64,000 nucleotides of DNA. Source: Candidatus Bathyarchaeia archaeon. GTDB taxonomy: Archaea > Thermoproteota > Bathyarchaeia > Hecatellales > Hecatellaceae. The notes under the pieces are model-generated. The model searched no databases, was not told the origin of the DNA, and saw only the letters and a list, made by a program, of their open reading frames with translations. The position numbers were made by a program, and so were the translations under genes. Positions 5,472-51,600 of this stretch are shown piece by piece. The stretch's first letter is position 1; every line of letters starts with the position of its first letter. Location: positions 51,696 to 115,695 of the forward strand of contig JAVZMI010000001.1 in assembly GCA_038883335.1 (NCBI GenBank). Direction: 5' to 3'.

Positions 5472-6095
5472 TTAATATGGGGGCTTCTCCTCTGCAGTTT
5501 TGCTACGCGTATAACATAGTCGGGAGATGATTTTTTGACTCCTGACTATGAGTGTATCCACATCCACTTTCATTACAATGACCATGATTAACGATGTTAA
5601 GGTTATGGAAGCCAGCACTACGGCAACATTTCCAAAAGAGGACCCGACTAGGCTTCGCGTGATGAAGCCTAGGTAAGCACCAGGCAGACCAATCGCAAAT
5701 TTTCCCAGAAAGTAGCTGACACAAAATTTTACTGGATTATATTTCATAAGGGCCATTGGAATCATAATAGGCTCATCGGGTAGGGGGGTGGCTGCTACAG
5801 CAAAGTTAGCCGCGAAAGCCCAGCGGCCTATCTTTGAGAAGTACTTATCGAGCCTAACGGATTTATCTTGGCCTATCACTTTCCTTAAGAAGAAAATAGC
5901 CAGGTAGTGAATTGATTTGGCGGCGGTAGCACCGCCGGCGACTATTAGCCCAACAGCTAGGGGGTCTAAGGCAAACAAGGAAGTGACGTTCATCGCGATT
6001 AGCAGGTTCGAGGGTCCCATGAAGGGTATAATGTTTAAGACGAATACAGTTATGAAAGCTCCAAGTAGCTCTAAGTCAGTCAGCTGCTCAAACAA
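5472..6095 (-). CDS. Integral membrane protein, DedA/VTT-domain-like
   Basis: 207 aa with 5-6 hydrophobic helices. The ATPLPDEPIMIPMALMKYNPVKF segment resembles the VTT/SNARE-associated domain. Confidence 0.35.
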   Translation of the reverse strand: MFEQLTDLELLGAFITVFVLNIIPFMGPSNLLIAMNVTSLFALDPLAVGLIVAGGATAAKSIHYLAIFFLRKVIGQDKSVRLDKYFSKIGRWAFAANFAVAATPLPDEPIMIPMALMKYNPVKFCVSYFLGKFAIGLPGAYLGFITRSLVGSSFGNVAVVLASITLTSLIMVIVMKVDVDTLIVRSQKIISRLCYTRSKTAEEKPPY

Positions 6096-34195: not shown

Positions 34196-34212
34196 CCGGT
34201 CATTAGAGAGGG

Positions 34213-36273: not shown

Positions 36274-36826
36274 CCTCCTGCAAAGGCCAAACTGCTGACT
36301 GCCACTTCTCTACCTCTCCACGAAGTCTCTCATAGAGGGCTCTCTCTTCAGGGGTTAGATTCTGGAATATTGTATCAGATTTACTGTTTAGAGAGGTAAA
36401 GAGAAGGATCTTATTGAGGCGACAGGTGAGAATGTCAATGGACAGCTGGACTGCTTTCTGTAACTCAGCCGCTTTTGCAGGGTTCGCGTAACTTTCTTCC
36501 CTGAGAACTTTAATGAACCTCTTTAAACGTGGGTAGAAATTTTCTGGGAGACCGGAGAGGCGTCGACTGGTTTGCATTGTCTCTTTTAAGTGAATCTTGT
36601 GGAGCTCTGCTAGGTTTATGGGTTCTCTTTCGGGCTGCAACCGTGCCAGACCTAACTTTATGAGCGCCTCAGCTACCCACATCCTAACCTTGAACTGTGT
36701 GTTCTCCACATAAGGGCCGATCTCCTCTCCGGCTACAGTAAGTTTTGGGATTTTCTTCGAAGCTATTAACGCTGCAGGACTGTGTTCATACCGTATATTA
36801 TACACGGTGAAGGGATGCGAAGACAT
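36266..36826 (-). CDS. Putative GINS subunit (Gins23-like), co-operonic with mcm
   Basis: 186 aa. Its stop overlaps the mcm start by 8 nt, as in crenarchaeal gins23-mcm operons. Sequence similarity to GINS was not verified. Confidence 0.35.
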   Translation of the reverse strand: MSSHPFTVYNIRYEHSPAALIASKKIPKLTVAGEEIGPYVENTQFKVRMWVAEALIKLGLARLQPEREPINLAELHKIHLKETMQTSRRLSGLPENFYPRLKRFIKVLREESYANPAKAAELQKAVQLSIDILTCRLNKILLFTSLNSKSDTIFQNLTPEERALYERLRGEVEKWQSAVWPLQEDE

Positions 36827-37319
36827 AGTTTAAACCGATTTGAGAGAGAAGCTTCTATATAATAGTCTTTTCTGGACAGACATTTTTACTGAATGCTACT
36901 GGTTCTTCTATCTTGGACTTTAAGCCGCTCAAAACATCTGACTTAAATAAACTGAGCCCTTTTCGTCGACGTGTTCCAAACTATTTTGAGGTTTACTCTT
37001 CTCCAAGAGGTCAGCGGAGGTACTTCTCCTCATCGGCCCTCTGTAGAGGGTCTAGGAGCAGGTCAGTCCACATCATCTAGAATGGTAAGATCTGGGTTAA
37101 TATTTAAACTTTTGACACATACAACCGCGGTAACTTGCACAGTGAACCGCCGGTAAAGCTTTCAAGGAAAGCTATTTTTACAGGTTTAACCGGCTGATAG
37201 CTAGCTCAATTGCCTCAAAAAGGGCACAAGAATGGAGGCTTCTACATGTCCTTTACTGGTTATGGAGCACCACTGAGATGTTGTTAATTCAAACCAGTAG
37301 TGCCATGTTAGCGGAGCGG

Positions 37320-37844
37320 TTATAGCTCGCCTCTTAGTAGGCGACTAAACCATAGCCTACAGTAACGGCGGAACTTGGAGAGGGTGGGGAAGACTTTTCT
37401 GGAGAAAAACTTCCAGCGCCATTCAATTAGAGCGCACGTGGTAGATGTTATCTCGAGTGCGAAGTATTGAAGCGTTGATAGGATGGATATTACACGTTCG
37501 ACGCCAGCGATATAACATGACGCCCCCACTAAGACAAGTAAAGCTAAAAAGAGGTCAAACGGAGCAATAGGTAGTCTTCTGTGTTGTTTAGCACTCGTTT
37601 CAGGCCGAACTGGGCTTGTATCCAAACGTTCTAGGCGATCTAAATCCTCCAAATACTTTATCCAGGCGGTGTAGCGGATGTTGTGACCTGGGCGAATCAT
37701 TATCCACTGCCTATTGTAGTCGCCTATAGCTGGATCGTAACCTTCAGGCGGCTTTCCGTATTTTTTAGCCAGCATCCTGAGTTTGTATTTTCTAATCTCT
37801 TCGGGGGAGAAATCGGACAAATTTTTTCTCAACTGAAATTTCAA
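37320..37844 (-). CDS. Hypothetical membrane protein
   Basis: 174 aa with a basic N-terminus and 2 predicted TM helices. Confidence 0.3.
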   Translation of the reverse strand: MKFQLRKNLSDFSPEEIRKYKLRMLAKKYGKPPEGYDPAIGDYNRQWIMIRPGHNIRYTAWIKYLEDLDRLERLDTSPVRPETSAKQHRRLPIAPFDLFLALLVLVGASCYIAGVERVISILSTLQYFALEITSTTCALIEWRWKFFSRKVFPTLSKFRRYCRLWFSRLLRGEL

Positions 37845-38024
37845 CAGCCACTCGTATAAGTATTTCTAACCGTCTACATGGAAGTGTTAGAATGCTTTGG
37901 CAAGCTGCAGAGGGTATATTAATTCGCTTAGGAGGGACAATCTATCCGGGGCTTGGTTAAGTAACTCTTTTAAGAAGGGGTAAAGAGCTTCATATCTTGC
38001 GAGTTAAGGGGTAAGTTTGGGTGA

Positions 38025-39491: not shown

Positions 39492-40316
39492 TTAGACTAT
39501 AACCTCAATCGGCTGTTGACTCACCACACCACACCCACCAGTGTAATCTACTGCAGTTTCCATTACAGGCTTGTGAGGCTGGGATAAATTCATAGCTATA
39601 CAGTCTGTCTTCTCCACTATCAACTCAATAGCCCTTCTCCAAAGTGGAGATTCAGCCAAGCATGGGAGGTAAACCTCCAGAGTATACTTGGCTCCCTTCG
39701 CGGTCAGCTTGAAATACCTAGAACTTGACCTCTCCTCTACTATAAAGCTCTCAAAGACTAGATCGGAGATAATCTCACACAACCTATCATAATTAAGCCA
39801 AGTTCCTGGATGAGAACTAGCAACCAAACCTTCTGGAGACCGAATGGCCCTTTCAGCCTCCAAATATTTGAGACAGTTATAGATCCAAGCTGCGGATGGC
39901 TTCGACAAACATGTTGGAATTTTAGACGCTCTCTCCCGTCTTAGTATCAGGTAAAGAATGAGCCCCCTTAAGGCCTCTTGTATACCTGCAGGCTGGTTCA
40001 CTAAAGATTTTAAGCGCTGAACTTCTTCGCTGAGAGAATAATGACTCCCCCAGGTTCCGAAGGCCTTATCCCCATAATCCTTGATCCTAGATAGCCCTAA
40101 ACCCGGCTCACTAACTGATCCGTCATCACACAGCTCAGCCACTTGCACATAATCAAGCGACGGTCTGCCGTCAAGGCGGCTCTGTGCCATCGTTAAGGAC
40201 GCTCTCTCTGCAAGGAAGTGGAGCCCTACAAGATAGCTTGAGTAATTTAATGAGTAATTTATCATACGCAACAGACTTGACTGTCTACTTACGACTGGTT
40301 CAACGATGAACCACAC
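39492..40316 (-). CDS. Hypothetical protein
   Basis: 274 aa with no recognised motif. It sits in the same operon as the Lrp-like and PadR regulators. Confidence 0.3.
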   Translation of the reverse strand: MWFIVEPVVSRQSSLLRMINYSLNYSSYLVGLHFLAERASLTMAQSRLDGRPSLDYVQVAELCDDGSVSEPGLGLSRIKDYGDKAFGTWGSHYSLSEEVQRLKSLVNQPAGIQEALRGLILYLILRRERASKIPTCLSKPSAAWIYNCLKYLEAERAIRSPEGLVASSHPGTWLNYDRLCEIISDLVFESFIVEERSSSRYFKLTAKGAKYTLEVYLPCLAESPLWRRAIELIVEKTDCIAMNLSQPHKPVMETAVDYTGGCGVVSQQPIEVIV

Positions 40317-40321
40317 ATCGG

Positions 40322-40624
40322 TCAGTCTGTCTCTGTGAGTGGGGTTTTTTCACCTTGGAAGTGGGCTTCTCTAGAGTTTAAGTATATAAGCTTCAGCCTT
40401 GGGAAGACTTGTTTTAGACCAGCTGTCTCAAAATAACTGTCTCTGGATCCTAAGAGGGCGGTGTACTCTTTTTTAGGATCCAACCCAAGGTTATCAATTA
40501 TATCGTATCCTAATTCTTTCCCAAGTTCCATGGAGGCGAAAGCAACTTTCGTCGGGGATATACTTCGCCTTATGATTGTTATACATTTCCTAGCTACAGG
40601 CGACTTCGAGATGTAAATTTTCAT
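40322..40624 (-). CDS. Hypothetical protein
   Basis: 100 aa. It is the first gene of the minus-strand operon 40624->38425. Confidence 0.25.
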   Translation of the reverse strand: MKIYISKSPVARKCITIIRRSISPTKVAFASMELGKELGYDIIDNLGLDPKKEYTALLGSRDSYFETAGLKQVFPRLKLIYLNSREAHFQGEKTPLTETD

Positions 40625-40843
40625 TCAACATTCCTCTACGCAGCATTTTCTTTCCATTATTTTACGAGTATAGATCTATTATGAGGTTATTTATAAATTT
40701 TGTGCACGTATAACTAAAATAATTGAAAAATAATCTATTAAAATCAATATTTTTTTAAAATAGATGTTTTTTGAGGTTATTTTTTATGTTTTTAACTCTC
40801 GGGCTTCAGAAAATATAAATTCTGAATTCCTGAATATTATTAT

Positions 40844-41158
40844 GTGGCAAGGTTGTCCGAAGAGAACCTTTGGAGTCAACTTAGACTCCTATCTCAAAAG
40901 GATGTAAGAAGAGTTTTATGCGAACTTTGCTTAGCCCCTGGTAGGAAAATGTCGCTTAAAGACCTAGCCTCTAGAACAGGGATCCCTTACACAACCGTAT
41001 ACCAGAAGATACAAGCAATGAGATCCGCAAGCCTGATTGATATGAAAGGAACGAAAAGAGAAGGCTTCACTGTCTATTTGAGAGACTTCGAACTACCGCC
41101 ACTTACCCCTGAAAGAATATGCGAGTTGGAGGGACGACCACTACCCAACATATTATGA
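40844..41158 (+). CDS. Winged-helix transcriptional regulator (ArsR/MarR-like)
   Basis: 104 aa with the HTH MSLKDLASRTGIPYTTVYQKIQAMRSASLI. Confidence 0.5.
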   Translation: MARLSEENLWSQLRLLSQKDVRRVLCELCLAPGRKMSLKDLASRTGIPYTTVYQKIQAMRSASLIDMKGTKREGFTVYLRDFELPPLTPERICELEGRPLPNIL

Positions 41159-41823
41159 GAGGGCAGATCTTGAAAGGAAACTATGTGGTCGTAGGGCTCA
41201 CCAATGAAAATGTTTGGAAAGAAGCTTTAAGATGCATTCGTAGAAATGGAGAATATATTACGGACCCTCAAAATCTAGAGAAAACCCAGGAGGTTCTAAA
41301 TCTAATCACCAGCATATTGAAGCCCTCTAACACGCTGCCTAGAGCATTCTCTAGAGACACGAAGATCAACGATCACCCCCACCTATTAGAAGGTCTAGTC
41401 AGACCTATCCCCGGCTTTAGCCCAGGAACACATCTCTGGGAATGGGCACTCCCTAGAGGACGACTGAATCAGATCGAAGATAACGTGACGAAAGTTCTCA
41501 GAAACAATCTACTCAGCCGCCGTGCAGTGGCATTAACTTTCCATCCAGGGATGGACTCTGAGCACATCCTCAACCCCCGCTATAGCTTCCCAGCTATACA
41601 GATTGTTGACTTCAAGTATAGGGAAGGGAGTCTACATCTGACCGCCTACCTGAGGTCTTGTGACATATATTCTTGGTGGCCGATAAACGTCGTCCAAGCC
41701 TACAGACTCCTCAAGAAAGTAGGAGAGAAACTTGACTTAAGTATAGGAACGCTCACATTGATGATCAGTAGCGCCCATGTCAAAGCAAGAAACCTAAAAA
41801 GGATTGAAACAATACTAGTTTAA
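41155..41823 (+). CDS. Thymidylate synthase (ThyA-fold) homolog lacking the catalytic cysteine
   Basis: 222 aa. It aligns by eye to E. coli ThyA. RRAVALTFHPG matches RRIIVSAWN, AYLRSCDIYSWWPINVVQAYRLL matches [22 protein letters not shown], and GTLTLMISSAHV matches GDFVWTGGDTHLY. The nucleophile motif P-C-H is replaced by P-R-Y. The start was taken at the internal ATG 41155; the ORF begins at 41119. Confidence 0.6.
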   Translation: MRGQILKGNYVVVGLTNENVWKEALRCIRRNGEYITDPQNLEKTQEVLNLITSILKPSNTLPRAFSRDTKINDHPHLLEGLVRPIPGFSPGTHLWEWALPRGRLNQIEDNVTKVLRNNLLSRRAVALTFHPGMDSEHILNPRYSFPAIQIVDFKYREGSLHLTAYLRSCDIYSWWPINVVQAYRLLKKVGEKLDLSIGTLTLMISSAHVKARNLKRIETILV

Positions 41824-42107
41824 CTTAGAAGTTTCAAACTGATGGAAAATTCTACTAAAAAAATAGGGGTATACATTCACCTTTTCCAATTTTTCTATTA
41901 GGAGTGGGGGGTTCTGGGGGAAATAAATAAAGTTGACAATTACCCAACAGTTTATCAACCTCATTTTAAATAATTAAAGAAATGGTGAGAAAGCTTGGCT
42001 AAGTCGAGGTCGACATATTGGGTTTTCCCCTACGCTAATGTTGTGGTTAAAACCCAAGAGCGGCAAGAGCGGAAGTAACCCCGTTCCCCCTATCCTTCCA
42101 CCAGCCT

Positions 42108-42818
42108 CTACTTCACTGGGTGATACCGAACCTCGAAACCTACCTCTTTTTTGGGTGGAAAGAAATAGTCACGCATTTTGATCAGGATGTTAACCATTTC
42201 TTTCGCCCAAGGCAACAGTTTAACCTCTTCACCAGTCTCTTCCAACCTTCGGAGACAGTTAACGAACCGCTCAGCCTCTTCTCTTCCTACATCAGAACTA
42301 TGGGGGGAAGGAGACGTGGAAACCTTCCATTCGACCCAAAACAGTAGAGGCACATAGTCGGAAACTTCGAGCTCTTCAAAGTTCACCTTTAACAGGATGC
42401 CGTAGAAGACCTCGGGGAATGTTTTTCTCAAAAACTTGAACAGTGCGTCTACTGCAGTTTTTAACGGCTCATGGCTTACTGGGAAATTCTCCATCAGAGT
42501 ATAGTTGACGTTATGTTTCTCTTCGACCTGTGCCACCTTGGAGATGGGTAGGAGCCCCCACCTTAGAAGGTTAACCACACCATGTTGAGTTAAACCGTAA
42601 AGTTCACGTCTACGACCCCAAGAGCCCTTCTCTCTCACTGGAAGAGCGAAGCCTTTTTTCTCTATGAACCGAGCCCATTTTGACATGAAAATGTGCATAT
42701 AGCCCCTACCAACTATGTCTGCCAGCTCACTCCAACAGAGAGGACCTCTCTCAATAAGCCTCAAAAAGGCTTCTTTTGCTTTTTTATGTCTTAAAAGAGG
42801 AGATTGACCAACCAACAT
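42108..42818 (-). CDS. Hypothetical protein with a possible N-terminal wHTH
   Basis: 236 aa. The N-terminus LRLIERGPLCWSELADIVG is HTH-like. The rest was not recognised. Confidence 0.3.
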   Translation of the reverse strand: MLVGQSPLLRHKKAKEAFLRLIERGPLCWSELADIVGRGYMHIFMSKWARFIEKKGFALPVREKGSWGRRRELYGLTQHGVVNLLRWGLLPISKVAQVEEKHNVNYTLMENFPVSHEPLKTAVDALFKFLRKTFPEVFYGILLKVNFEELEVSDYVPLLFWVEWKVSTSPSPHSSDVGREEAERFVNCLRRLEETGEEVKLLPWAKEMVNILIKMRDYFFPPKKEVGFEVRYHPVK

Positions 42819-42896
42819 AATGGTTCACTAGATCCTAAGATTCACTATACCATTACTATTATATAAGGTTTTCGCTCATTTTTAATTTGACCAACT

Positions 42897-43100
42897 ATGG
42901 ATAAAGGAAAAGGGGTTAATCGACTCATCTATCTTCCAAACCAGATAGATGAAATCGTAGAAACCACTAGAAGAAGACTTGGCTATTCGAGAAGTAGCTT
43001 CTACCGTTACGCCGTAACGCTCCTTCTCCAAGACCTCAACATTCTAACGAAGACCGTGAACGCTTCAATCGAGAAGGAGGGGGAAACGAAAAATGTCTGA
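42897..43100 (+). CDS. Ribbon-helix-helix (CopG/Arc/MetJ-like) DNA-binding protein
   Basis: 67 aa. VNRLIYLPNQIDEIVETTRRRLGYSRSSFYRYAV fits the beta-strand plus two helices of an RHH. Such proteins are common in archaeal plasmids and viruses. Confidence 0.45.
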   Translation: MDKGKGVNRLIYLPNQIDEIVETTRRRLGYSRSSFYRYAVTLLLQDLNILTKTVNASIEKEGETKNV

Positions 43101-43348
43101 GACCAACCCACGCCTAGAACTGTGCCCAGAATGCGGAAGAAAGCTCAGGGAACTCCTTTTGCCGAAGCTCGAGCGGCTAGAAGCACTTCTCAAGTCGAGA
43201 TAACAAAGAAAAAGAGGAGGAAAAACGTGGTAAATAAGTATAAACATAAAGAGGCTTTTAAACGTTTCTTTAAGGAATTATGCCCCTTCGCCATCGAAGC
43301 CAATGGATCCGTTAACTGCTTCGCCATCGAAGACGCCATCGGGTTCTG

Positions 43349-45709
43349 TTGTTGCCCACGTCTCCTCAACGCTCTGAGAGAAACCCCCCCATCAACCAAA
43401 AAGGTGAAACGGAGATGAGCGAAGCGGCTAACCAAACTTGTAAAACATGCGGAGCGATCATGGAGCGGGGGAAGTGCCCCAAATGCACACCTTTTGAAGA
43501 GTTTATTAACCTTCCACTGGCGTCATGTGTGAATTGCGGTCACTATTTAGGCTTAGAGTGCCCCAGAGCTTCAATACACCAAGAGAATAGGCGAACCCGC
43601 ACCTTCACTGCAGACGACTATAAAATCTGTGAAAAGTGGACGTTAGCCATCAGAACTGCGGATGGCACAGTTTATAGACCTCTGGTGAACAAGGGAATCT
43701 CCGCTCATCCAGCCTCTCTCTTCCATAGCGGAGAAAACGGCATCATAGTTGGTGAGCTGACCTTCGCCCGTTCAGAAGTGGAAAAAACAAAGAAGGAAGA
43801 CCCAATAAAGACTAGAGAGATAACCGTTTATCTTTTTTGGTGCCACCACCACAACCACGAGCTCCAACTTTACTTTAAATCGCTCAGTGCAGTGGACGCC
43901 ATTCCCTATGGTGATAAAGAGATCTACCTCGAGAAGGATAACCTTGTGAAAGACCCAATTCAGACGTTGATACCGTTAGAGACTGTGGAGCGGGTTGCGG
44001 CTAGCCCTGAAGAGGCAAACAAAGAAGCGGAGTTCCCCGCAATTTTCAGACAGGTAAAGACAGAGCTCAGACGTTTTCTCAACCTAGAGTGGGATCCACG
44101 GCTTTACGATTTATTGGCATGTTACATTATCGCAACATACTTCTTCGACGCATTCCAAACGTTCCCATGGCTTTATTTCTATGGCTTTCAGGGATGCGGA
44201 AAAACAAGAGGAGCCCTAACGGTCACATATATGGCTAGACACGGTCACATGGTCACAAAACCGAGTGACGCTTCCATCTTCCGACTATGCCACGCCATCA
44301 AGCCCACCTTATGTGTGGACGAGGGACTGTTAGGACGGTCAGCTTGGAGTTTCGCCCGATCCACATTCAAGAAAGGCGTCAAGGTTCCACGAGTCGAGAA
44401 GACCCCACGAGAAGAGTTCGTTATTTCGCTCTTCGACTTGTACATGCCACTAGTCTTCGCTTCAACTAAGAAGCCCACTGAAGCGGGGGGGTTGAATGCG
44501 GATGAGGCACGTGCAATATTCATCCACATGGAACGAGCTCGAGACCCTATAGGTCGGGATCCCACGCCAGAAGACTTTGCCGCTCTAAGAGATCGGCTCT
44601 ACATGTTGCGGCTCTTCAAGGCTAAATGTGTCGTCGAGACGTCTAAGAACATTAATGTTCCGTTTCTGGGACATGAACGAGAAATATGGACGCCCATCTT
44701 CACGATTGCCAACTTAGTTGGGAAGGACGTTCTCTCTTCTCTCTATAAACTAGCAAACGACCTGTACGCTTCAAAGTTTGTAGAGTTAAATGTGAAAGAG
44801 AAGACAATACTTGACGCCATAGCCCTCCTATTCAAAGAAACGAACGAAAAAATTGTGTGTTTCACACCTTCTTCTCTTCAAGCGTACATCAAAACTGTGC
44901 TTATAGAAAGCGGAGAGTACGACGAACTCCACTTTCCAAAGATATGGAACGTGTATCTCATAGGCAGGCTCCTTTCAAGGATGAAACTCACACCCAAACG
45001 GGACACGGCTCGAAAATACTATATCACCCAGCCTCAGTTCGCCAAGCTTGAAAAACAATTTGGTATAGAGCTCGACGTTTTCGACGTTTTCGACGTTAAT
45101 GTGGAAGAACCATCTACCCCCACTTCAGACCCCAATACCCTATCCCTAAAATTAACGTCGAATTCGTCGAATTCGTCGAACGATAAAAAAGAAAGCTTAG
45201 ACAACGCCTCTTTAAACGAAAAAACCTTAGAAAAAGGCGAATTTAGAGATAGTGTTAAAAATAAAGCTTCTCAACCTGAAATAGAAGCTAAAAAAGACGA
45301 ACAGACCGCTCTAGAGAGTGAAAGTTTCGACGTTTTCGACGTTTTCGACGTTAATGTGGAAGAACCCCCTACCCCCACTTCAGACCCCAATACCCTATCC
45401 CTAAAATTAACGTCGAATTCGTCGAATTCGTCGAACGACGAGAGGGGGAACGGCTCTCATGGTGGCTTTAATGATGTTTCTTGCGGCACTTCTAACAGTG
45501 GTTCTGTTGGCGTTTCTAGTGAGGTTTCTAGTTGCACTGTAGAGAAGCACCACTGTCTCACAACGGAGGGTAGTGAACCTCAACCGATGGTCAGTGGAGT
45601 ACCAGGTCTCCCACCAAGGTTCAAATGTGAGATCTGTGGACGGAAGTTCCGTTTCCCCTACGATGTGCTCTCACATAAGCAAACCGACCACGGTTTAAAG
45701 GTGGTCTAA
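43349..45709 (+). CDS. Element-encoded Zn-finger/P-loop NTPase (putative replication helicase or initiator) with a C-terminal tandem-repeat region and a C2H2 zinc finger
   Basis: 786 aa. The N-terminal Zn-ribbons are CKTCG...CPKC and CVNCGH...C. Walker A is GFQGCGKT and Walker B is LCVDEG. It is followed by two copies of FDVFDVFDVNVEEP(S/P)TPTSDPNTLSLKLTSNSSNSSND and a terminal C2H2 finger FKCEICGRKFRFPYDVLSHKQTDH. Confidence 0.55.
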   Translation: MLPTSPQRSERNPPINQKGETEMSEAANQTCKTCGAIMERGKCPKCTPFEEFINLPLASCVNCGHYLGLECPRASIHQENRRTRTFTADDYKICEKWTLAIRTADGTVYRPLVNKGISAHPASLFHSGENGIIVGELTFARSEVEKTKKEDPIKTREITVYLFWCHHHNHELQLYFKSLSAVDAIPYGDKEIYLEKDNLVKDPIQTLIPLETVERVAASPEEANKEAEFPAIFRQVKTELRRFLNLEWDPRLYDLLACYIIATYFFDAFQTFPWLYFYGFQGCGKTRGALTVTYMARHGHMVTKPSDASIFRLCHAIKPTLCVDEGLLGRSAWSFARSTFKKGVKVPRVEKTPREEFVISLFDLYMPLVFASTKKPTEAGGLNADEARAIFIHMERARDPIGRDPTPEDFAALRDRLYMLRLFKAKCVVETSKNINVPFLGHEREIWTPIFTIANLVGKDVLSSLYKLANDLYASKFVELNVKEKTILDAIALLFKETNEKIVCFTPSSLQAYIKTVLIESGEYDELHFPKIWNVYLIGRLLSRMKLTPKRDTARKYYITQPQFAKLEKQFGIELDVFDVFDVNVEEPSTPTSDPNTLSLKLTSNSSNSSNDKKESLDNASLNEKTLEKGEFRDSVKNKASQPEIEAKKDEQTALESESFDVFDVFDVNVEEPPTPTSDPNTLSLKLTSNSSNSSNDERGNGSHGGFNDVSCGTSNSGSVGVSSEVSSCTVEKHHCLTTEGSEPQPMVSGVPGLPPRFKCEICGRKFRFPYDVLSHKQTDHGLKVV
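45072..45438. repeat. Two 112-nt near-identical direct repeats (45072-45183 and 45327-45438, period 255 nt) inside the 786-aa ORF, with embedded micro-repeats (tcgacgtttt x2.5; tcgaattcg x2)
   Basis: The copies were aligned directly. They differ only in ccatct versus ccccct. They encode the duplicated low-complexity protein segment. Confidence 0.8.
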
Positions 45710-46657
45710 ATGCGGAGAGAAGACTTCTGGTTTGAGTGGTTCGGCTTGTTCGGCAGAGAGGTTGGTAACCCGTTTCGGTTCTTCGTAGACAACCCTATAG
45801 ATTTCGTCAAGTTTGTTGAGAAATGTGAAGCGGCGAAGTCTCCAGTCTTCATGTCAGTGAACCATTATCGGGATCGAGACACGGTTTACGCTCTCGACAA
45901 GCTTTTCTTCGATTTTGACAACGCAACAGAGCCTGAGAAAGCCATCTATGAGGCTCTCCAGTTCGCAGAGATTTTAAAACGGTTCTACCATGCGGAGCCC
46001 TTAATCGTTCGCTCAGGTCTCAAAGGTGCGGGTGTCTACGTTTTCTTTCCACAAGCCATAACTGGAGCCCCCGAAGACTTAGCAGAGGTCTATCGCAAAG
46101 TCGCCAGCCTCATCTTGAAGGGTCTCCAGTTCTCCACGTTAGACCATCAGGTTCTGGGGGACGTTAAACGGCTAAGTCGGGTTCCTTATACACGCCACGA
46201 GAAGAGCGGTCAAATGTGCATCCCCATAAACGAGAAAGGAGTGGAAGTCAACCTGAGCGGGGAAGACTTGGCGAAAATCAGAGAGAGAAGCCCCCTACCC
46301 GCTCACATGCTCAAACTTGCATGGCACCACATCTTCTTGGAGCGGAAGGTGAGAGCGGGGGAAGGAAACCGCAACCAAGCCCCCCCTTTCAATAAGATTA
46401 GAACACCAGTTCAAGACCTCATATTGTTAGCTAAGGCTGGAGCCCACCTTTCCCACCACGGATACCTAGCCATACTCTTCGAACTCATCAACAACGGTTA
46501 CACAGACGACCAGATCCTTTCCCTCTTTAGAACGCTCTTCAAATCCAAGTTTAACGAGAAAGAGACCCGCTACTTCATCACGCATGCCCGAAAGAAACGC
46601 TACCTACCCTTCAGCATCTCACGGGTAAAACATGAACTAAATCTACTCTCACCTTAG
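45710..46657 (+). CDS. Archaeo-eukaryotic primase (AEP/prim-pol) superfamily protein
   Basis: 315 aa. It has the catalytic acidic motif LFFDFDN (hhhDhD), SGLKGAGVYVFF (SGxRG-like motif II) and LSRVPYTRHEKSG (motif III). Its start abuts the stop of the upstream NTPase gene. Confidence 0.6.
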   Translation: MRREDFWFEWFGLFGREVGNPFRFFVDNPIDFVKFVEKCEAAKSPVFMSVNHYRDRDTVYALDKLFFDFDNATEPEKAIYEALQFAEILKRFYHAEPLIVRSGLKGAGVYVFFPQAITGAPEDLAEVYRKVASLILKGLQFSTLDHQVLGDVKRLSRVPYTRHEKSGQMCIPINEKGVEVNLSGEDLAKIRERSPLPAHMLKLAWHHIFLERKVRAGEGNRNQAPPFNKIRTPVQDLILLAKAGAHLSHHGYLAILFELINNGYTDDQILSLFRTLFKSKFNEKETRYFITHARKKRYLPFSISRVKHELNLLSP

Positions 46658-46669
46658 GGGGACAGGCAT

Positions 46670-46972
46670 ATGAAGAAACATGTTCAACCATGCGGAAGAG
46701 GCAAAACTAAGCCTCAGACCCCTACCCTCCAAACGAAAAAACCCCCCGAAAAAACCGTGAAACCCGAACCGAACAAGAAGCGGAGAAGAGAAAAGAGAGC
46801 CCGCACACCAGTAGAATACCTCGTAGCATTCGAGAACGCCAACCTCATAGTGGAAGCCTCTTTCGCTACACCACCAAATAGAGCCGCACATAAAATTTTC
46901 CAGATTCAACAAGGTCTCCGCAAGTTCAACAGAAGCACCCGCACAGTGAAGAGAAAACTTGGCATAGTATAA
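46670..46972 (+). CDS. Small lysine/arginine-rich protein, hypothetical
   Basis: 100 aa, very basic and proline-rich at the N-terminus (KKPPEKTVKPEPNKKRRREKRAR). It may be nucleic-acid binding. Confidence 0.25.
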   Translation: MKKHVQPCGRGKTKPQTPTLQTKKPPEKTVKPEPNKKRRREKRARTPVEYLVAFENANLIVEASFATPPNRAAHKIFQIQQGLRKFNRSTRTVKRKLGIV

Positions 46973-47171
46973 CCCCCCGCTTCACGCTTGCGAGGTGAAA
47001 AAGATGGGTAAGAAACTCAAGAAGAAAGATTAAACCGTGAAGGTTAGAGGCACCCCCTCATCCCCCAACCTTTTTTCTCTCTTCAACCATATGCCTTAAG
47101 GAGAGGTCTCATCCAGTATGGTTGGGGAACCCATACAACCAGTTCATCCACGTCTCACTCAACTCACTCTG

Positions 47172-47244
47172 TCATATTATAATATGACAAAGTGTCTTAA
47201 ACTTGAAAAGTATGGATATTGAACAAAAGAATGATTTTGTTCAA
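47172..47244. promoter_or_regulatory. Two perfect palindromes in the element intergenic region: tgtcatattataatatgaca (20 bp) and ttgaacaaaa-gaatga-ttttgttcaa (10-bp arms)
   Basis: Both were read directly from the sequence. They lie in a 410-nt non-coding stretch downstream of the convergent gene pair 46670..46972 and int. Confidence 0.35.
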
Positions 47245-47385
47245 TGGGTCTCAGTCTTCCCATACAGAGTCGGCTTTTTAGTGTAGATTGAGAACCAATG
47301 TTCCCCTTCTACACATGTGATCCTGTTATTGTTAGTTAAGGTAAACTGGTTATTTTAGAGGCTTCTATTAGTTAAAATAAACTGG

Positions 47386-48633
47386 TTAAGTTAGAAGCTT
47401 CCTTATCTCCGCAACCTCTTCCAACGCCCTGTTAATCCTTCCAGTGAGCTCCGTGTTCTCCAACTCCAACCTTGCCATCCTGCTCTTAAGCTCCAAGTTT
47501 TCTGCAGAGAGGTTCTCTATCACCTTCTGGAGGCTTTGGATGCGTTCATCCACCTTGGCGTCAACCTTCCTCTCAATCTCCGACGGGTCGACTGGAGGGG
47601 GGGTTATGCTCAGTAAGCGTTCCCGTTCGAGATACATCTTCCTGAGGCTCTCAAACTGGAGCCCTTTATACGCTTCCGCCATCTCTCCGATTGCATGCCC
47701 TAACCAGAAGTCAACTATGGTGTCTGGTACGCCTGAGTTAATCATTATGCTACCGAAGCTTTCACGCAAGGCATGGGGACTTAACGGGTTGATGTCTCTA
47801 CCGTTATTATAGGGGTCTATGAAGCCCGCCTTTAATGCCACCTCTCTCAACATGTTCTGGACTAGGTGTGGTTGAAGTGGAGCCCCATGTGGTCGTTCCC
47901 TTTGGAATAGTGGCGAACCGTCTTGAAGCTTCACACCTCTGGCTTCAAGGTCTCGGAGGTAGACTTTGACTGCTTCTATTGCGTCACGCCCAAGGAATGT
48001 GAAATATTCCACTCCAGTTTTCGGTCGGTAGAGGTCTAGCTTGAGGGGGATCTCTCCAGACTCGAGACCTCTCCGTATGTCTCCATATTTGAGACTGCAC
48101 AGTGTCGAGACATCCATCCCGCTTTGAAACATGGTGAGAATGACGGCTTTGTCACGGGGGTTCCTTGCATGATCCACCAACAACTTGACCTGACTAGAGC
48201 TCAACCTCATCCTTCGGTTGGTTACCTTCGGTTTGGGAAGCCTGTAGCGGCCCTTAAGGCGCACTTCAACGTCGAAAGTCGAGTAGAAGCTTCTTATGGC
48301 GGTTATGTAGAGGTTTGCGGCTTTATCGCTCAAACCCTTCTTGACTTCTGTATGTTCGCATCTTCCACGCCTTTTTATGGGGTAATCCTTTTTCAAATAT
48401 TGGTAGAACCCGACTATCCTGTTGAGGACTATGCCACGCCTTTGGCGTATGTCTCTGGTTTGGTCTTCTACGGCTTCGTCGATGAGTTGGCTTGCGGTTA
48501 GACCTGTGAAGGCTAGGTATGCTCTGATGGCGGTTTTGTAGCTTGCTTTGGTAGACGGTTTAGTTACGGGGTCAAGCCACCTTGATATGGCGGGGTCTTC
48601 TAAGTTTATCAGCTCAATTTGTGGAGACGACAT
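47386..48633 (-). CDS. int: Tyrosine recombinase/integrase (phage-integrase family), full length
   Basis: 415 aa with an N-terminal SAM-like domain. The C-terminal catalytic domain has R...HALRESFGS (H-x-x-R)...GHAIGEMAEAYKG with a terminal Tyr region. The gene is not split, which points to a pNOB8-type integrase. Confidence 0.8.
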   Translation of the reverse strand: MSSPQIELINLEDPAISRWLDPVTKPSTKASYKTAIRAYLAFTGLTASQLIDEAVEDQTRDIRQRRGIVLNRIVGFYQYLKKDYPIKRRGRCEHTEVKKGLSDKAANLYITAIRSFYSTFDVEVRLKGRYRLPKPKVTNRRMRLSSSQVKLLVDHARNPRDKAVILTMFQSGMDVSTLCSLKYGDIRRGLESGEIPLKLDLYRPKTGVEYFTFLGRDAIEAVKVYLRDLEARGVKLQDGSPLFQRERPHGAPLQPHLVQNMLREVALKAGFIDPYNNGRDINPLSPHALRESFGSIMINSGVPDTIVDFWLGHAIGEMAEAYKGLQFESLRKMYLERERLLSITPPPVDPSEIERKVDAKVDERIQSLQKVIENLSAENLELKSRMARLELENTELTGRINRALEEVAEIRKLLT

Positions 48634-48853
48634 TTACTCCTCCTCATATCCTTTCTGGAAAATAAATAACTTCATTGAATTTAAAGGTTATGTTACAGGT
48701 TAAACTAGACAATACTCAAATAAATCAGGTCGGATGTTCGATGAATACCTATGTAATCCTATACTGAATGATTAAGTTTAAGCCTTTTTGATTATTCCCT
48801 CGGTGGGGAAAATGTAATATGCTAATACGTCGTTAATTCGTATTTGAGTCGAA

Positions 48854-49090
48854 ATGAGAGCCTACGTGTTAATCACCACCAAACCAGGGACCTCCGAAGA
48901 AGTCCTCAGACAGATCAAGACTACACGGGAGATCAAAGGTGTTATTCTGGCCGACTCGGTCTACGGTCGGTTTGATGCAGTAGTCGTGATCGAGGCGGAA
49001 AACCTAGAGACCATAACCGACATCATATACAAGGTGATAGAGAAATACCCGAACATAACTCACACCGAAACACTTTTGACCTTATTCTGA
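48854..49090 (+). CDS. Stand-alone RAM (Lrp/AsnC C-terminal ligand-binding) domain protein
   Basis: 78 aa. MRAYVLITTKPGTSEEV...GRFDAVVVIEAENLETITDIIYKVIEKYPNITHTETL fits the RAM beta-alpha-beta-beta-alpha-beta pattern. Confidence 0.55.
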   Translation: MRAYVLITTKPGTSEEVLRQIKTTREIKGVILADSVYGRFDAVVVIEAENLETITDIIYKVIEKYPNITHTETLLTLF

Positions 49091-49122
49091 ACCCTCAGTC
49101 TACGTTGGGAAGGTTTACCTTA

Positions 49123-49362
49123 TCAAGGAGGATGGAAGAGCGCGACAAGGGTCTCGGTATGGATGATGTTAGGGGCTTTCTCAATCATCTCGTAGATTAT
49201 CTTGGATAATTCTTCAAAGTCCGCCGCCTCGATCACAGCTACTGCATCAAACCGACCTAGGACTGAGTTAATCATCTTCACCCCCCTAATCCGTCTAGCC
49301 TTAACAAGCTCTTCCGAAGTTCCCGGCTTAGTTGTAACCAGCACGAAGGCACGAACCGGCAA
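49123..49362 (-). CDS. Stand-alone RAM domain protein, a paralog of 48854..49090 in convergent orientation
   Basis: 79 aa, MPVRAFVLVTTKPGTSEEL...GRFDAVAVIEAADFEELSKIIYEMIEKAPNIIHTETL. It is about 55% identical to its neighbour. Confidence 0.55.
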   Translation of the reverse strand: MPVRAFVLVTTKPGTSEELVKARRIRGVKMINSVLGRFDAVAVIEAADFEELSKIIYEMIEKAPNIIHTETLVALFHPP

Positions 49363-49446
49363 CTGTCACCCTCACCATGAACGTCGACAGGTCAAGTTTC
49401 AAAGTTCAACCTATTAAAGGCTGCGTCCACAGTTTTGAGAGCATAC

Positions 49447-49827
49447 TTAGATGACATTAAACTTTAAAGTGTTACCGTCTCGATCAAATATGACTATATC
49501 CTCCTCGGTTTTGTAGGGGTAAGCTACAATCGCCATCAGGCTGCCGTAAAAATTGTTTAAATCCTCTATTGAGGGACGCTTAGCGCCAGATGGATGTGAA
49601 TGCGCCACCCCCACAATGGATGGATCTATTGGCAACATGAAGAATGGAAAGCTGGAGAAATTGTAGCTATGAGTGGCCAAAGGTGGTATCACGGTGCCAG
49701 TTATGTTGACAGCACCTTTCCGAGTCGTACCTCGCAGAAGAAGGATTCCCTCCTTTGGGTGAAATATCTGGGCATAACTAAGTAGACTATCGATGACCTC
49801 ACGTTTTATCGAGACAACCCTCCCCAA
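49447..49827 (-). CDS. JAMM/MPN+ (Mov34) family metalloprotease-like protein
   Basis: 126 aa with the JAMM motif E...HSHPSG-x6-PSxxD (VAHSHPSGAKRPSIEDL). Confidence 0.7.
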   Translation of the reverse strand: MGRVVSIKREVIDSLLSYAQIFHPKEGILLLRGTTRKGAVNITGTVIPPLATHSYNFSSFPFFMLPIDPSIVGVAHSHPSGAKRPSIEDLNNFYGSLMAIVAYPYKTEEDIVIFDRDGNTLKFNVI

Positions 49828-49982: not shown

Positions 49983-50125
49983 GCCCCGGTCAAGCCTCGG
50001 TTCCCTCGGTGAAGGGTGAGAGAGCGCAGCATGGTTGGCGCGTGGCCTTGGTAAAATATTAAAGCAAATTGATTGCACCTACAAAAAGGCTAAGGTCGCG
50101 GGTTCAAATCCCGCCCGGGGCTCCA
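49983..50125 (+). tRNA. tRNA-Thr(GGU) with two introns: a non-canonical one near positions 8/9 (about 32 nt, 49991-50022) and a canonical 37/38 intron (33 nt, 50054-50086)
   Basis: The deduced mature tRNA is GCCCCGG-UA-GCGC-AGCAUGGUUG-GCGC-G-UGGCC-UUGGUAA-GGCUA-AGGUC-GCGGG-UUCAAAU-CCCGC-CCGGGGC-U-CCA. The acceptor has 7 bp, and the D, anticodon (U33, GGU, A37) and T arms are canonical. The discriminator is U and the CCA is encoded. Confidence 0.75.
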
Positions 50126-50223: not shown

Positions 50224-51600
50224 GTGATTGAAGTGATCGCCCTGGAAGAGATGCGAGAGATTGCACGCAGATATAAAAATCCGATGGGGTTAGTTTTAGG
50301 TTCCCACTCAGCCTTGGACGCGATGGCTGGGCTGAGGGACTACGGAATAAGGGGGCTCATCTATACGACTAAGGGTAGGGCTGAGATATATTTAAGGGAG
50401 CCCAGAGTTGGAAGACCTGAGGAGGAGATTGAGAATCTACCACAAGTAGTCGAGCGTGACCTCTACGTATCAGAAGACATCCGAGACATTGCTAGAAAAA
50501 AAGAGCGCTGGTCCGTTGCGATCCTAATCTTAGACCGTTATGATGAAATATTGAAGCCGGAGAACATTGACACGTTGCTTGAATTGGAGGCTATCCAGAT
50601 ACCTAACCGAGCCTTCGCCGTGTATGTTGGCGGAGATAATTGTGAGAAGATTGAGGATGACTTCTCCGTCCCGATCCTTGGCTCGCGGGGGCTCCTCAAG
50701 ATAGAAGACAGAGAGAAACTTGAGAAGAATTATTATTGGTACCTGGAGCAGGCGGGGATCCCCCACCCAACTCCATACAAATACGAAATTACTGGCGATG
50801 GGATAAAGTTTCCAAAGGAAATCGAGCAACCTCTAGTTCTAAAGATCCCCCACGCGGGAAGGAGACTTGAGAGAGGGTTCATATTTGCCGCTAATGGGGC
50901 TAGTTTGGAGGAGGAAGTGAGAAACGCCCTAGCATCAGGGGAGATTCTGTTCGAAGATCTGAAGGATGGGAGAGTCGAAGAATATATTCCAGGTGTAACC
51001 GCCAACCTAAACTTCTTCTATTCACCCCTATACGCAGAGGAGAACTGGGGAGTTGTAGAGAACTATGTAAGTAGAAGCAGGCTGGCGAACGAGTTTCTCT
51101 CAATAGATGAGAGGAGAGAAACAACTCACGACGGCATACTCCGCATGCTGGCAAGAGACCAGTTGAAAGCTGATTGGAGCAAGACCAACTACCCCATAAG
51201 CTTTGAGGTGACAGCTCACAGCTTAATCAGTCTGAGGGAGTCCCTTCTGAGAAAGATCTACCCGATAGCTGACGCTTTCGTCGAGTTTACCCAGAAGTCA
51301 GACCCGCCGGGAATGATTGGAGCCTATTGCATCCAGACATTGATAACCTTTGAAAAGCAACCATATGTCGAAGCAGTAACTCAAGGTGTCTACGACGCGG
51401 CTGGCAGCGCCTTCTACGATTTCGTCCCAAAAACGCAAGATGTGGCAGTTAGGCACGGTGGCGGAACCAACGTCCATCAAGGCATCGGCTCCCAGTATGC
51501 AAATGCAAAATATAAGCGAGTCATGAGTACAGGGGACAGAATCGCTTTGGAGATCGTCAGGGCGAAGAAGAAGGGCATGCTAGATAGGATAGTAACCTAA
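50224..51600 (+). CDS. PurP-like ATP-grasp enzyme (5-formaminoimidazole-4-carboxamide ribonucleotide synthetase family)
   Basis: 458 aa. The N-terminal LVLGSHSALDAMAGLRDYG resembles the PurP GSHSAL signature, and the ATP-grasp-like central region fits. It is longer than canonical PurP, which is about 360 aa. Confidence 0.5.
   Translation: MIEVIALEEMREIARRYKNPMGLVLGSHSALDAMAGLRDYGIRGLIYTTKGRAEIYLREPRVGRPEEEIENLPQVVERDLYVSEDIRDIARKKERWSVAILILDRYDEILKPENIDTLLELEAIQIPNRAFAVYVGGDNCEKIEDDFSVPILGSRGLLKIEDREKLEKNYYWYLEQAGIPHPTPYKYEITGDGIKFPKEIEQPLVLKIPHAGRRLERGFIFAANGASLEEEVRNALASGEILFEDLKDGRVEEYIPGVTANLNFFYSPLYAEENWGVVENYVSRSRLANEFLSIDERRETTHDGILRMLARDQLKADWSKTNYPISFEVTAHSLISLRESLLRKIYPIADAFVEFTQKSDPPGMIGAYCIQTLITFEKQPYVEAVTQGVYDAAGSAFYDFVPKTQDVAVRHGGGTNVHQGIGSQYANAKYKRVMSTGDRIALEIVRAKKKGMLDRIVT

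Follow-up and report, generated by a model that had tools for sequence, protein, structure and literature searches.

An 8.2-kb block at ~40.63-48.85 kb of the 64,000-nucleotide stretch of Bathyarchaeia DNA analysed here (the window) is embedded in the host chromosome, departs from it in composition and carries the genes of a recurrent element family. We consider it likely that the block is a cryptic integrated plasmid-like replicon. The family was recognised by none of the reference libraries searched and is apparently undescribed. A preliminary description had proposed an integrated plasmid- or virus-like element outside any nameable family, and this proposal is upheld by host-gene flanks, k-mer deviation, a family of ~38 loci and insertion borders in three relatives.

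Setting, composition and gene content of the block

The left host flank encodes Hel308, MCM and GINS (31955-36826), and the right host flank carries tRNA-Thr, PurP and CorA. Bathyarchaeia/Hecatellales MAGs are the phylogenetic neighbours of the flanking PurP; the element had been called crenarchaeal, a label that we drop, the host being a Bathyarchaeia (Hecatellales-like) MAG and not a classical crenarchaeon. GC content, a check suggested earlier, was by itself unremarkable in the block (45.5% versus 47.9% for the window). The tetranucleotide signature revealed a discontinuity: when the whole 64 kb was scanned, solely the 2-kb intervals from 40001-42000 through 46501-48500 exceeded the mean distance by more than 1.5 SD. 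The AT-rich tracts said to flank the block are indeed the two lowest in GC (22.8% and 32.3%) among the 24 intergenic tracts of the window (mean 39.9%, SD 5.5). They probably represent the left and right element ends, the left tract probably also containing the promoter region of the operon formed by the winged-helix (wHTH) and thymidylate-synthase-like (TS-like) genes; inside it lies an imperfect 47-nt direct repeat (40655-40701 and 40745-40791). In a Markov log-likelihood scan for which 42.1-47.0 kb alone served as training sequence, the integrase region resembled the element core and host level was reached at ~48.75 kb. The left edge was less sharp than the right, and the TS-like gene scored host-like. 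All eleven ORFs of the block are uninterrupted and lie close together, their starts and stops overlapping or abutting one another, and the features listed in the preliminary description were all recovered where it had placed them. The block and its surroundings comprise:

40625..40843, no strand: left AT-rich boundary tract, 22.8% GC, rank 1 lowest of 24 intergenic tracts; the tetranucleotide deviation starts here
40844..41158, plus: ArsR-like winged-helix regulator, 104 aa (HTH_20, 2.9e-7); overlaps the start of the next gene
41119..41823, plus: thymidylate-synthase-fold protein, 234 aa (PF00303, 1.9e-10)
42108..42818, minus: 236-aa protein, divergent from the replication operon; positional equivalent of the relatives' 243-268-aa wHTH proteins
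42897..43100, plus: ribbon-helix-helix (RHH) protein, 67 aa, operon gene 1; homologous to same-position ORFs in loci L083, L084 and L122
43122..43418, plus: small basic Cys-rich protein, 98 aa, from the ORF list; stop overlaps the NTPase start
43415..45709, plus: zinc-ribbon AAA+ NTPase, 764 aa; CxxC...CxxC zinc ribbon, Walker A GFQGCGKT, C-terminal C2H2 finger
45710..46657, plus: AEP primase, 315 aa; PriS-like catalytic domain and PriL-C-terminal-like helical domain; start abuts the NTPase stop
46670..46972, plus: very basic 100-aa protein, last operon gene, from the ORF list
46973..47385, no strand: repeat-rich non-coding region from the operon end to the integrase 3' end
47386..48633, minus: tyrosine integrase, unsplit, 415 aa (PF00589, 3e-18); coiled-coil tail at the C-terminus; 5' end toward the host flank
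48634..48853, no strand: right AT-rich tract, 32.3% GC, second lowest intergenic; Markov drop at ~48,750
49983-50125: tRNA-Thr(GGU), 1.35 kb beyond the integrase start, with two introns

The replication genes form a tight operon in the order RHH, small protein, NTPase, AEP primase and small basic protein. The signature gene of the family encodes the NTPase, which has the Zn-finger and P-loop features described previously, here seen as a zinc ribbon, a C-terminal C2H2 finger and a Walker A motif, and which keeps every residue that is invariant in its family. The gene contains a 112-nt duplication, 98% identical (45072-45183 and 45327-45438), in the disordered linker. No sequence match to the NTPase was found in Pfam, NCBIfam or PDB, and neither single-sequence nor family-profile searches of IMG/VR returned a relative. 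Its structure model shows similarity to the SCCmec Cch helicase and to MCM, with low TM-scores; overall pLDDT is 58, with residues ~100-550 confident in large part but not throughout, parts of the ATPase core falling below 50. The modelled fold thus points to a putative Cch/MCM-like replicative helicase or initiator.

The neighbouring protein is an AEP-family primase, as had been claimed, with matches to PHROG 9660 (1e-16), a PHROG annotated 'primase' (1.8e-6) and, in its PriL-like C-terminus, PF04104 (1.3e-5); a profile of six family members also matched archaeal PriS structures (1zt2, 4e-7). While no variation occurs in the DxD motif or in motif III, motif II reads KGAGV in the window primase versus KGYHV in its relatives, so that a His conserved in the five relatives and in PriS is replaced by Gly. 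Having lost this residue from its primase, the window copy of the element may no longer be fully functional. Comparison of both proteins with PLSDB plasmids and GenBank phages yielded no relatives of the NTPase and a single, marginal match of the primase, to a Clostridium plasmid (PLSDB, 8e-4). No family match was obtained in Pfam or PHROGs for the basic 100-aa protein.

Both regulator types named earlier were confirmed, the wHTH protein by its HTH_20 match and the RHH protein by homologues in L083, L084 and L122 (38-51% identical) and by PF01402 (RHH_1) in the ORF at the same position of L085. A similar-sized minus-strand gene lies directly upstream of RHH in L083, L084, L105 and L122, where it is the counterpart of the 236-aa gene; the L084 copy matches HTH_34 (2.8e-7), and the window's own protein has no Pfam match. 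In the relatives, the position between RHH and NTPase is always occupied by a small ORF. The region 46973..47385 contains a 30-nt palindrome (47165-47194), a hairpin (47218-47245), an inverted repeat (47281-47314) and a 36-nt tandem repeat (47332-47401), features that would suit a candidate origin or regulatory region.

The cargo described as ThyA-like does have a thymidylate-synthase fold, as its PF00303 match indicates, but the catalytic Cys is absent: the position of E. coli C146 is Ala ('FPAIQ') both here and in the nearest relatives. The TIGR03283 score (82.7 bits) lies under the cutoff of that model (174.55). As it lacks the nucleophile, the protein is judged from its sequence to be an unlikely producer of dTMP. 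No TS-like homologue occurs in the other family loci, and the wHTH/TS-like gene pair may be cargo specific to the window copy.

More than 498 homologues of the integrase were found; identity is 51-67% for the best 120, and the protein aligns at full length with over 100 homologues. K205, H287, R290, H313 and Y322 are invariant, and the first catalytic Arg is replaced by Asp across its clade. The preliminary description had called it a 'pNOB8-style' unsplit integrase. This holds only in the operational sense that the gene is unsplit; no sequence link to pNOB8 emerged, and the closest viral integrases are encoded by Geoglobus pleomorphic virus 1 and psiM2/psiM100 (~24% identity).

A recurrent family and its insertion sites

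The NTPase family comprises ~38 loci, including 31 further metagenome loci and L122-L124, in Bathyarchaeia, Methanomethylicia and Nitrososphaeria. Gene maps share the order wHTH (minus strand), RHH, small ORF and NTPase, next to which lie an AEP primase, an integrase or both. The window, L091, L093, L096, L101, L111 and L122 have the AEP primase gene immediately after the NTPase gene, and in seven other loci an AEP gene (PF22548, ~1e-25) immediately precedes the NTPase gene. The adjacent integrase is one of two types. Most relatives (16 loci) carry, directly after the NTPase and on the same strand, a type different from that of the window, and in six other loci the NTPase is accompanied by the window type. 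L113 has both types, one on either side of the NTPase module, the window type being convergent as in the window. In L087, L088, L090 and L096 the window-type integrase sits at the element edge with its 5' end outward, again as in the window.

Insertion borders are demonstrable in three relatives. In L083, a 28-nt direct repeat with a spacing of 10.3 kb ends within the 3' end of a KH-domain gene; in L084, a direct repeat of 26 nt with a spacing of 6.5 kb overlaps a tRNA 5' end; and a DNA-glycosylase gene of L085 is interrupted by the element, which leaves fragments of 117 and 95 aa. In addition, the element of L096, whose integrase is of the window type, is flanked by an amidohydrolase gene on one side and a DHDPS-Fae gene on the other.

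For the window itself, our search agreed with the preliminary description that att direct repeats could not be found: none longer than 12 nt, and none above chance, links the two flanks. This absence is uninformative, because att repeats are likewise undetectable for other elements with the same integrase type. Neither a genome with an empty site nor a circular form of the element was found, and in the comparison of related genomes proposed earlier PurP-based synteny was not conserved across the 76 related genomes. The tRNA-Thr reported 1.3 kb past the integrase was located, although ARAGORN misses it on genomic DNA and Rfam detects its 3' part only (30.3 bits); it was recovered after removal of the two introns. 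It is probably not the target of the element.

Proposed mechanism and rival explanations

We propose that the right-edge tyrosine integrase inserts the element site-specifically and presumably also excises it, the target being intergenic, with a divergently transcribed host gene on either side and a core sequence too short to detect. The excised circle would be replicated by the element's own module, in which the NTPase would serve as origin-binding initiator and helicase, a role suggested by its likeness to the self-loading SCCmec Cch helicase and MCM, while the adjacent PriS-PriL-like AEP primase would make primers. The operon may be under the control of RHH and of the divergently encoded wHTH protein, with the repeat-rich stretch at 46973-47385 as candidate origin.

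A less probable, but credible, reading is that the block is a decayed, immobilised remnant which has lost excision and replication and is heading for domestication or loss. The undetectable att repeats, the compositionally blurred left boundary and the motif-II His replacement, found in the window primase alone, would all fit. Against decay stand the eleven intact and closely packed ORFs, the complete set of family-invariant residues in the NTPase, its 98%-identical internal duplication, which argues for recent evolution, and a k-mer signature that has not ameliorated; the att repeats are equally undetectable in other elements with this integrase type. We regard it as improbable that the block is the provirus of an undescribed small archaeal virus, with capsid or DNA-packaging components among its unannotated small and basic proteins. 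Five of the 11 ORFs (236-aa, RHH, 98-aa, 100-aa and NTPase) lack a family assignment, capsid proteins in archaea often escape recognition at the sequence level, and the nearest integrases among sequenced mobile elements are viral. PHROGs and Pfam searches of the element, however, returned no structural, packaging, capsid or membrane-protein matches, the unassigned ORFs look soluble, basic or DNA-binding-like from their sequences, the signature NTPase has no IMG/VR relative, and L084, the smallest defined relative at ~6.5 kb, leaves little space for a morphogenetic module.

It is equally improbable that the integrase stems from another element, adjacent or older, and has become a neighbour of the NTPase/primase replicon by chance or tandem insertion. 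Such a composite would fit the inverted orientation of the window integrase and the 414 bp of repeat-rich DNA that lie between it and the operon, and it would agree with the other, same-strand integrase type that directly follows the NTPase in 16 loci and with the two types flanking the module in L113. Yet the window type accompanies the NTPase in six other loci, L113 shows the same convergent arrangement, the integrase region and replication core have a common k-mer signature, and no second element gene set lies beyond the integrase. Largely refuted is the idea that the block is no mobile element but an island of the host chromosome with genes for regulation, replication or defence. The 'TOTE conflict system' AEP model does match one of the AEP types that relatives pair with the NTPase, and many transcription regulators surround the block, but the host's own MCM-GINS module is next door, PADLOC gave no matches, the block is compositionally foreign, and the family is sporadic over three archaeal classes, always with integrases and with insertion borders in relatives.

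Comparison with known systems

As a probable integrated plasmid-like replicon, the element shares with the pNOB8 and SSV types of Sulfolobales and with pT26-2, pTN3 and TKV of Thermococcales the lifestyle of an archaeal plasmid or virus integrating via a tyrosine recombinase, and, as in the pNOB8 type, its integrase gene stays intact. In contrast to this group, no sequence relationship was found for its NTPase or its primase, its integrase finds its nearest matches elsewhere, no tRNA-derived att was found, and conjugation and fusellovirus VP genes are absent. The pTN2-type PriS-PriL fusion primase (PolpTN2) and other mobile-element AEP families were reportedly treated by Gill et al. in 2014 and Kazlauskas et al. 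in 2018. Like PolpTN2-type enzymes, the window primase combines in a single polypeptide a PriS-like AEP domain with a PriL-C-terminal-like helical domain without Fe-S cysteines; unlike them, it is encoded separately from the helicase and lacks the motif-II His, and its only PLSDB match is the Clostridium plasmid and not an archaeal one.

The self-loading helicases SCCmec Cch and SaPI Rep (PDB 5dgk, 8tch) are likewise replication proteins of integrase-bearing chromosomal islands, in their case staphylococcal ones. They come from a different domain of life and share no sequence similarity with the window NTPase (no PDB or Pfam DUF927 match), which has in addition zinc fingers at both termini and a long linker predicted to be disordered, and whose activity is predicted.

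Thaumarchaeal cryptic integrated elements (CIE) are mostly smaller than 20 kb, with an integrase, wHTH/RHH regulators and no viral hallmark genes (Krupovic et al. 2019, PMC6563490). Their replication modules are a mobile-element-specific primpol, MCM or, in NitAR2-E2, one Cch-helicase homologue, and their att sites are short, down to 8 bp, targeting tRNA genes, intergenic regions and the 3' ends of protein genes (PMC6563490). CIE are a descriptive class and not a homologous family; the NTPase of the window family has no sequence-detectable link to described families, and we set the NitAR2-E2 Cch homologue beside it by description only. Whereas CIE are from Thaumarchaeota, hosts of the window family are mainly Bathyarchaeia, with homologues also in Nitrososphaeria and Methanomethylicia. 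The two are nevertheless alike in size, integrase-centred build, regulators, mobile-type replication module and absence of viral hallmarks, and the target types of CIE match the insertion sites of L083-L085.

Gene content and composition of the block

A cryptic integrated plasmid-like element is the best description of the block at ~40.6-48.85 kb. An ORF map covering 37-52.5 kb gave the following features.

Features of the block (window coordinates, strand, product, best library match)
40844-41158, + strand: wHTH protein, 104 aa (HTH_20, 2.9e-7)
41119-41823, + strand: ThyA-like protein, 234 aa (PF00303, 1.9e-10)
42108-42818, - strand: divergent gene, 236 aa
42897-43100, + strand: RHH protein, 67 aa
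43122-43418, + strand: small protein, 98 aa
43415-45709, + strand: zinc-ribbon AAA+ protein (NTPase), 764 aa (none matched in Pfam, PHROGs, NCBIfam or PADLOC)
45710-46657, + strand: primase, 315 aa (PHROG 9660, 1e-16)
46670-46972, + strand: basic protein, 100 aa
46973-47385: non-coding, 413 bp
47386-48633, - strand: integrase, 415 aa (PF00589, 3e-18)

The genes from RHH through the 100-aa basic protein overlap or abut, and therefore form an operon. The block combines an integrase with a mobile-element-specific replication module and has no matches to structural proteins in Pfam or PHROGs, the combination by which cryptic integrated elements are recognised. Like archaeal members of that class, it is chromosomally embedded, with host genes on either side. 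To the left lie Hel308, a full-length MCM and GINS (31955-36826), followed by regulators including PadR and Lrp, and to the right two small Lrp-ligand-domain proteins, a JAB protein, tRNA-Thr, PurP and CorA. The nearest relatives of PurP (50224-51600) come from Bathyarchaeia/Hecatellales MAGs, at 76-81% identity. We also observed that the two Lrp/AsnC ligand-binding-domain proteins (78 and 79 aa) are paralogous, stand-alone and encoded by convergent genes, and that this pair adjoins the JAB/MPN-domain protein, all of them lying at 48854-49827 between the element and tRNA-Thr.

GC content, proposed in the preliminary description as a check across 38-51 kb, was not decisive (45.5% for the block compared to 47.9% for the window), whereas tetranucleotide composition marked the block as an outlier. 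When each 2-kb window across the whole 64 kb was compared against the rest of the window, the distance exceeded the mean by more than 1.5 SD only in 40001-42000 through 46501-48500. The regions at 36.8-40 kb and 48.5-50.2 kb, which were omitted from the background too, yet score normal, provide an internal control. Under a third-order Markov model trained solely on 42.1-47.0 kb, the integrase region also reads as element-like and the host level is reached at ~48.75 kb; the left edge is blurrier than the right and falls somewhere within 40.2-42.0 kb. The composition of the block is distinct from that of the host in both the tetranucleotide and the Markov log-likelihood scans. Codon-usage scoring could not delimit the block, since the bias is too weak in this genome. 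The AT-rich tracts reported to flank the block are indeed present: of 24 intergenic tracts, 40625-40843 (22.8% GC) and 48634-48853 (32.3% GC) have the highest AT content.

Separately, the stretch at 36750-37850, comprising the tract after GINS and an unassigned 174-aa ORF (37320-37844, - strand), scored as element-like under the Markov model. Its codon usage is atypical (z = -2.8), yet it is normal in the 2-kb tetranucleotide scan. This stretch could be an older remnant.

The insertion site

The block separates two divergently transcribed host genes, a 100-aa ORF that ends at 40624 and an Lrp-domain gene that starts at 48854. In other loci with a window-type integrase (L087, L088, L090 and L096), the integrase gene forms the edge of a run of hypothetical genes and its 5' end points toward host genes, as in the window, and in three of these four contexts (L087, L090 and L096) the integrase start faces the start of the neighbouring gene. 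From this arrangement we infer an intergenic target.

The tRNA-Thr noted ~1.3 kb beyond the integrase was a further candidate target. On genomic DNA, ARAGORN detected no tRNA anywhere in the window, and the Rfam match (50045-50122, 30.3 bits) was marginal and confined to the 3' part of tRNA-Thr. The gene, a tRNA-Thr(GGU) at 49983-50125 (+ strand), is interrupted by two introns, one of 32 nt after position 8 (49991-50022) and one of 33 nt at 37/38 (50054-50086), and ARAGORN calls it once these are removed in silico, so that the tRNA is genuine and complete, at a distance of 1.35 kb from the start of the integrase. We rejected it as the probable target site; no repeat above chance links the flanks to the tRNA. 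An 11-mer, TTCCCTCGGTG, common to 48795-48805 and the first tRNA-Thr intron, was likewise discarded as an att candidate when 20 of 500 shuffles matched it. The proximity of tRNA-Thr to the block is probably incidental.

More broadly, and in agreement with the earlier failure to find att repeats, seeded repeat finding, blastn-short and Smith-Waterman alignment with shuffles detected none above chance across the left flank, the right flank and the tRNA. Four other elements that carry the window-type integrase, L096, L101, L088 and L087, gave the same negative result. The lack of att repeats thus seems to go with this type of integrase and not to speak against integration. It is consistent with a short core for the window-type integrase. 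Thaumarchaeal integrated elements provide precedents both for intergenic targets and for att sites of as little as 8 bp (PMC6563490).

A search for the empty site through PurP covered 76 related genomes and revealed no conserved synteny, even at 76-81% identity, and the arrangement of genes seems very fluid in this Bathyarchaeia/Hecatellales lineage. The surroundings of PurP in these genomes differ completely from those in the window; in L012, for instance, it lies downstream of a purF/purD/purE-like cluster. Exact-protein look-ups with the integrase, PurP, the NTPase, the 78-aa Lrp-domain protein (48854-49090) and the 100-aa left-flank protein (40322-40624) returned no further contig.

An NTPase-defined family of loci

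The signature gene of the element is the NTPase. Its 18 homologues, at 35-45% identity, occur in Bathyarchaeia, Methanomethylicia and Nitrososphaeria; they share a conserved core at approximately residues 94-545, in which the Walker A and Walker B residues are invariant. Neither the single sequence nor a profile matched Pfam (including the DUF927 and MCM models), NCBIfam or PDB, and relatives were absent from IMG/VR, PLSDB and GenBank phages. Because Pfam, NCBIfam, PHROGs and PADLOC all fail to detect these proteins, their annotations read 'hypothetical', 'TFIIB-type zinc ribbon' and even 'ribosomal protein S27AE'. An AF2 model built on the 19-sequence alignment was confident over much of residues ~100-550, with parts of the ATPase core below pLDDT 50; overall pLDDT was 58, owing to the disordered ends. 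Foldseek independently placed ORC1 and Cch as the top matches. The protein thus combines an AAA+ core carrying Walker A/B with a modelled Cch/MCM-like fold. With no link at the sequence level, the name we give it, a putative initiator or helicase of the Cch/MCM-like AAA+ kind, comes from its fold alone.

The disordered linker of the window NTPase contains a 112-nt direct duplication, 98% identical (45072-45183 and 45327-45438), that encodes FDVFDVFDVNVEEP..SNSSNSSND two times. Comparable in-frame linker repeats in L101 (46 nt) and L113 (87 nt) indicate that the linker seems prone to expansion.

A profile scan of metagenome contigs yielded 31 further NTPase loci and the closest homologue added three; the family numbers ~38 loci over three archaeal classes. 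Clustering of all ORFs revealed a shared backbone in which a divergent wHTH gene of ~240-270 aa is followed by RHH, a small ORF and the NTPase, which is usually coupled with a partner of ~300-360 aa. This partner is interchangeable among family members. A window-type primase lies directly downstream of the NTPase in the window and in L091, L093, L096, L101, L111 and L122. A different AEP, matching the 'TOTE conflict system' AEP model (PF22548, ~1e-25), lies directly upstream in seven loci (L097, L100, L107, L110, L112, L116 and L118), and a Cdc6-like AAA+ ATPase lies downstream in three (L107, L120 and L121). The integrases are of two types. In the majority of loci the integrase is of a type encoded after the NTPase in the same orientation, and the window type is found in L096, L099, L101, L106, L113 and L117, being convergent in L113 as in the window. 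L113 carries both integrase types (540-1421 and 5154-5696), flanking the NTPase module on opposite sides, and could represent tandem or nested elements.

Three long contigs with the other integrase type display insertion borders at three distinct kinds of target. In L083, a 28-nt direct repeat (2741-2768 and 13044-13071), with copies 10.3 kb apart, ends in the 3' end of a KH-domain gene; in L084, a 26-nt repeat (7181-7206 and 13693-13718), 6.5 kb apart, overlaps the 5' end of a tRNA; and in L085, a ~10 kb element interrupts a gene of the 3-methyladenine-glycosylase family, leaving pieces of 117 and 95 aa (2570-2923 and 13005-13292). The L096 element, which has a window-type integrase, is flanked by amidohydrolase and DHDPS-Fae genes. 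No terminal overlap indicative of a circular form was found on any family contig, a 12-nt overlap in L122 being treated as chance. Together, the family loci with insertion borders, the foreign composition of the block and the host genes on both sides of it support the original proposal of an integrated element outside any nameable family.

Catalytic residues and relation to known systems

The primase is assigned to the AEP superfamily with one reservation, which concerns the window copy. In addition to PHROG 9660, the protein matched a PHROG labelled 'primase' (1.8e-6), its C-terminal stretch is PriL-like (PF04104, 1.3e-5; NCBIfam PriL, 2e-6), and a profile of six family members matches PriS structures (1zt2, 4e-7), aligning the family motif SGxKGYH with SGNRGFH of PriS. 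Judged against AEP motifs I (DxD), II (SGxGxH) and III (hD...R.P), motifs I and III occur without variation throughout the family. Motif II of the window copy (46016-46036, residues 103-109) reads SGLKGAGV, compared to SGxKGYH/FH in PriS and in each of the five relatives; Ser, Gly, Lys and Gly remain, and His is replaced by Gly in this copy only (KGAGV versus KGYHV). AEP primases need the motif-II His, and from this substitution catalysis may be impaired.

The integrase belongs to a very large, tight clade of >498 homologues, the best 120 of which share 51-67% identity with it. It is intact, its 415 aa aligning over 91-100% coverage to those best 120, and carries a C-terminal coiled-coil tail of ~75 aa. 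Of the catalytic set expected in a tyrosine recombinase (Arg-I, Lys, His-x-x-Arg, His/Trp and Tyr), the Lys, His-x-x-Arg, His and Tyr (K205, H287, R290, H313 and Y322) are invariant. At the Arg-I position of XerA (GlRVSE), the window integrase and every close homologue in our integrase alignment (A2) have Asp (SGMDVS), while Arg-I is retained in the more distant integrases of L099, L106 and L117.

Identification of the cargo gene as ThyA-like is sound with respect to homology and fails at the active site. The protein, annotated as 'thymidylate synthase', has TS fold and sequence homology, with a methanogen-type thymidylate synthase as its top NCBIfam model at a score under the cutoff, and keeps the dUMP-phosphate-binding motifs SRR and RSxD (SRRA and RSCD). 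It lacks the catalytic cysteine that defines ThyA: Ala ('FPAIQ') aligns with E. coli C146, likewise in the nearest relatives, and the Pro-Cys is kept in more distant ones. When 5.8 billion proteins were searched through a word index, the sole match was the query, and an exhaustive search found 414 distant relatives, mostly of 210-230 aa, with some fused into proteins of ~470-500 aa. No other locus of the NTPase family carries this gene.

Several known kinds of locus can be weighed against these features. A defence island was rejected in view of the absence of PADLOC matches. An SSV-type (fusellovirus) provirus was also rejected, as the integrase is unsplit, structural matches are lacking and no fusellovirus appears among the phage-collection matches. 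The unsplit, intact gene does resemble a pNOB8-type integrase, which remains unsplit upon integration, and to this extent the preliminary label was apt; as to membership of the pNOB8 clade, the plasmid matches listed for the window integrase are all bacterial (~24% identity) and no tRNA-derived repeat was found. A cryptic integrated element accommodates these observations, and is a known kind, described for Thaumarchaeota (PMC6563490).

Within that kind, the family is defined by a helicase, putative by its fold, that is unrecognised by the reference libraries searched, and we found no description of this NTPase-defined family. Almost nothing is known of the mobile elements that Bathyarchaeia carry, the one survey consulted (PMC10541130) covering capsid-encoding viruses only, and the locus offers a handle on a recurrent plasmid-like family of ~38 loci in three archaeal classes. 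Recognising this family would improve mobile-element annotation in uncultured archaea, supply candidate minimal replicons and integrases as genetic tools for lineages that have none, and give the Cch/MCM-like genomic-island helicases an archaeal branch; it overturns no concept. As a joint reading, which we offer tentatively and hold at somewhat below even chances, these loci might represent a widespread family, hitherto undescribed, whose integrative replicons occur in Bathyarchaeia, Methanomethylicia and Nitrososphaeria. The Cys-less TS-fold cargo would then have a nucleotide-binding, non-TS role, and one integrase type would be the >498-homologue clade working without the first catalytic Arg on very short att cores. 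The defining protein, always accompanied by interchangeable AEP primases, would correspond, in archaea, to the self-loading Cch/SaPI-Rep helicases known from genomic islands of bacteria.
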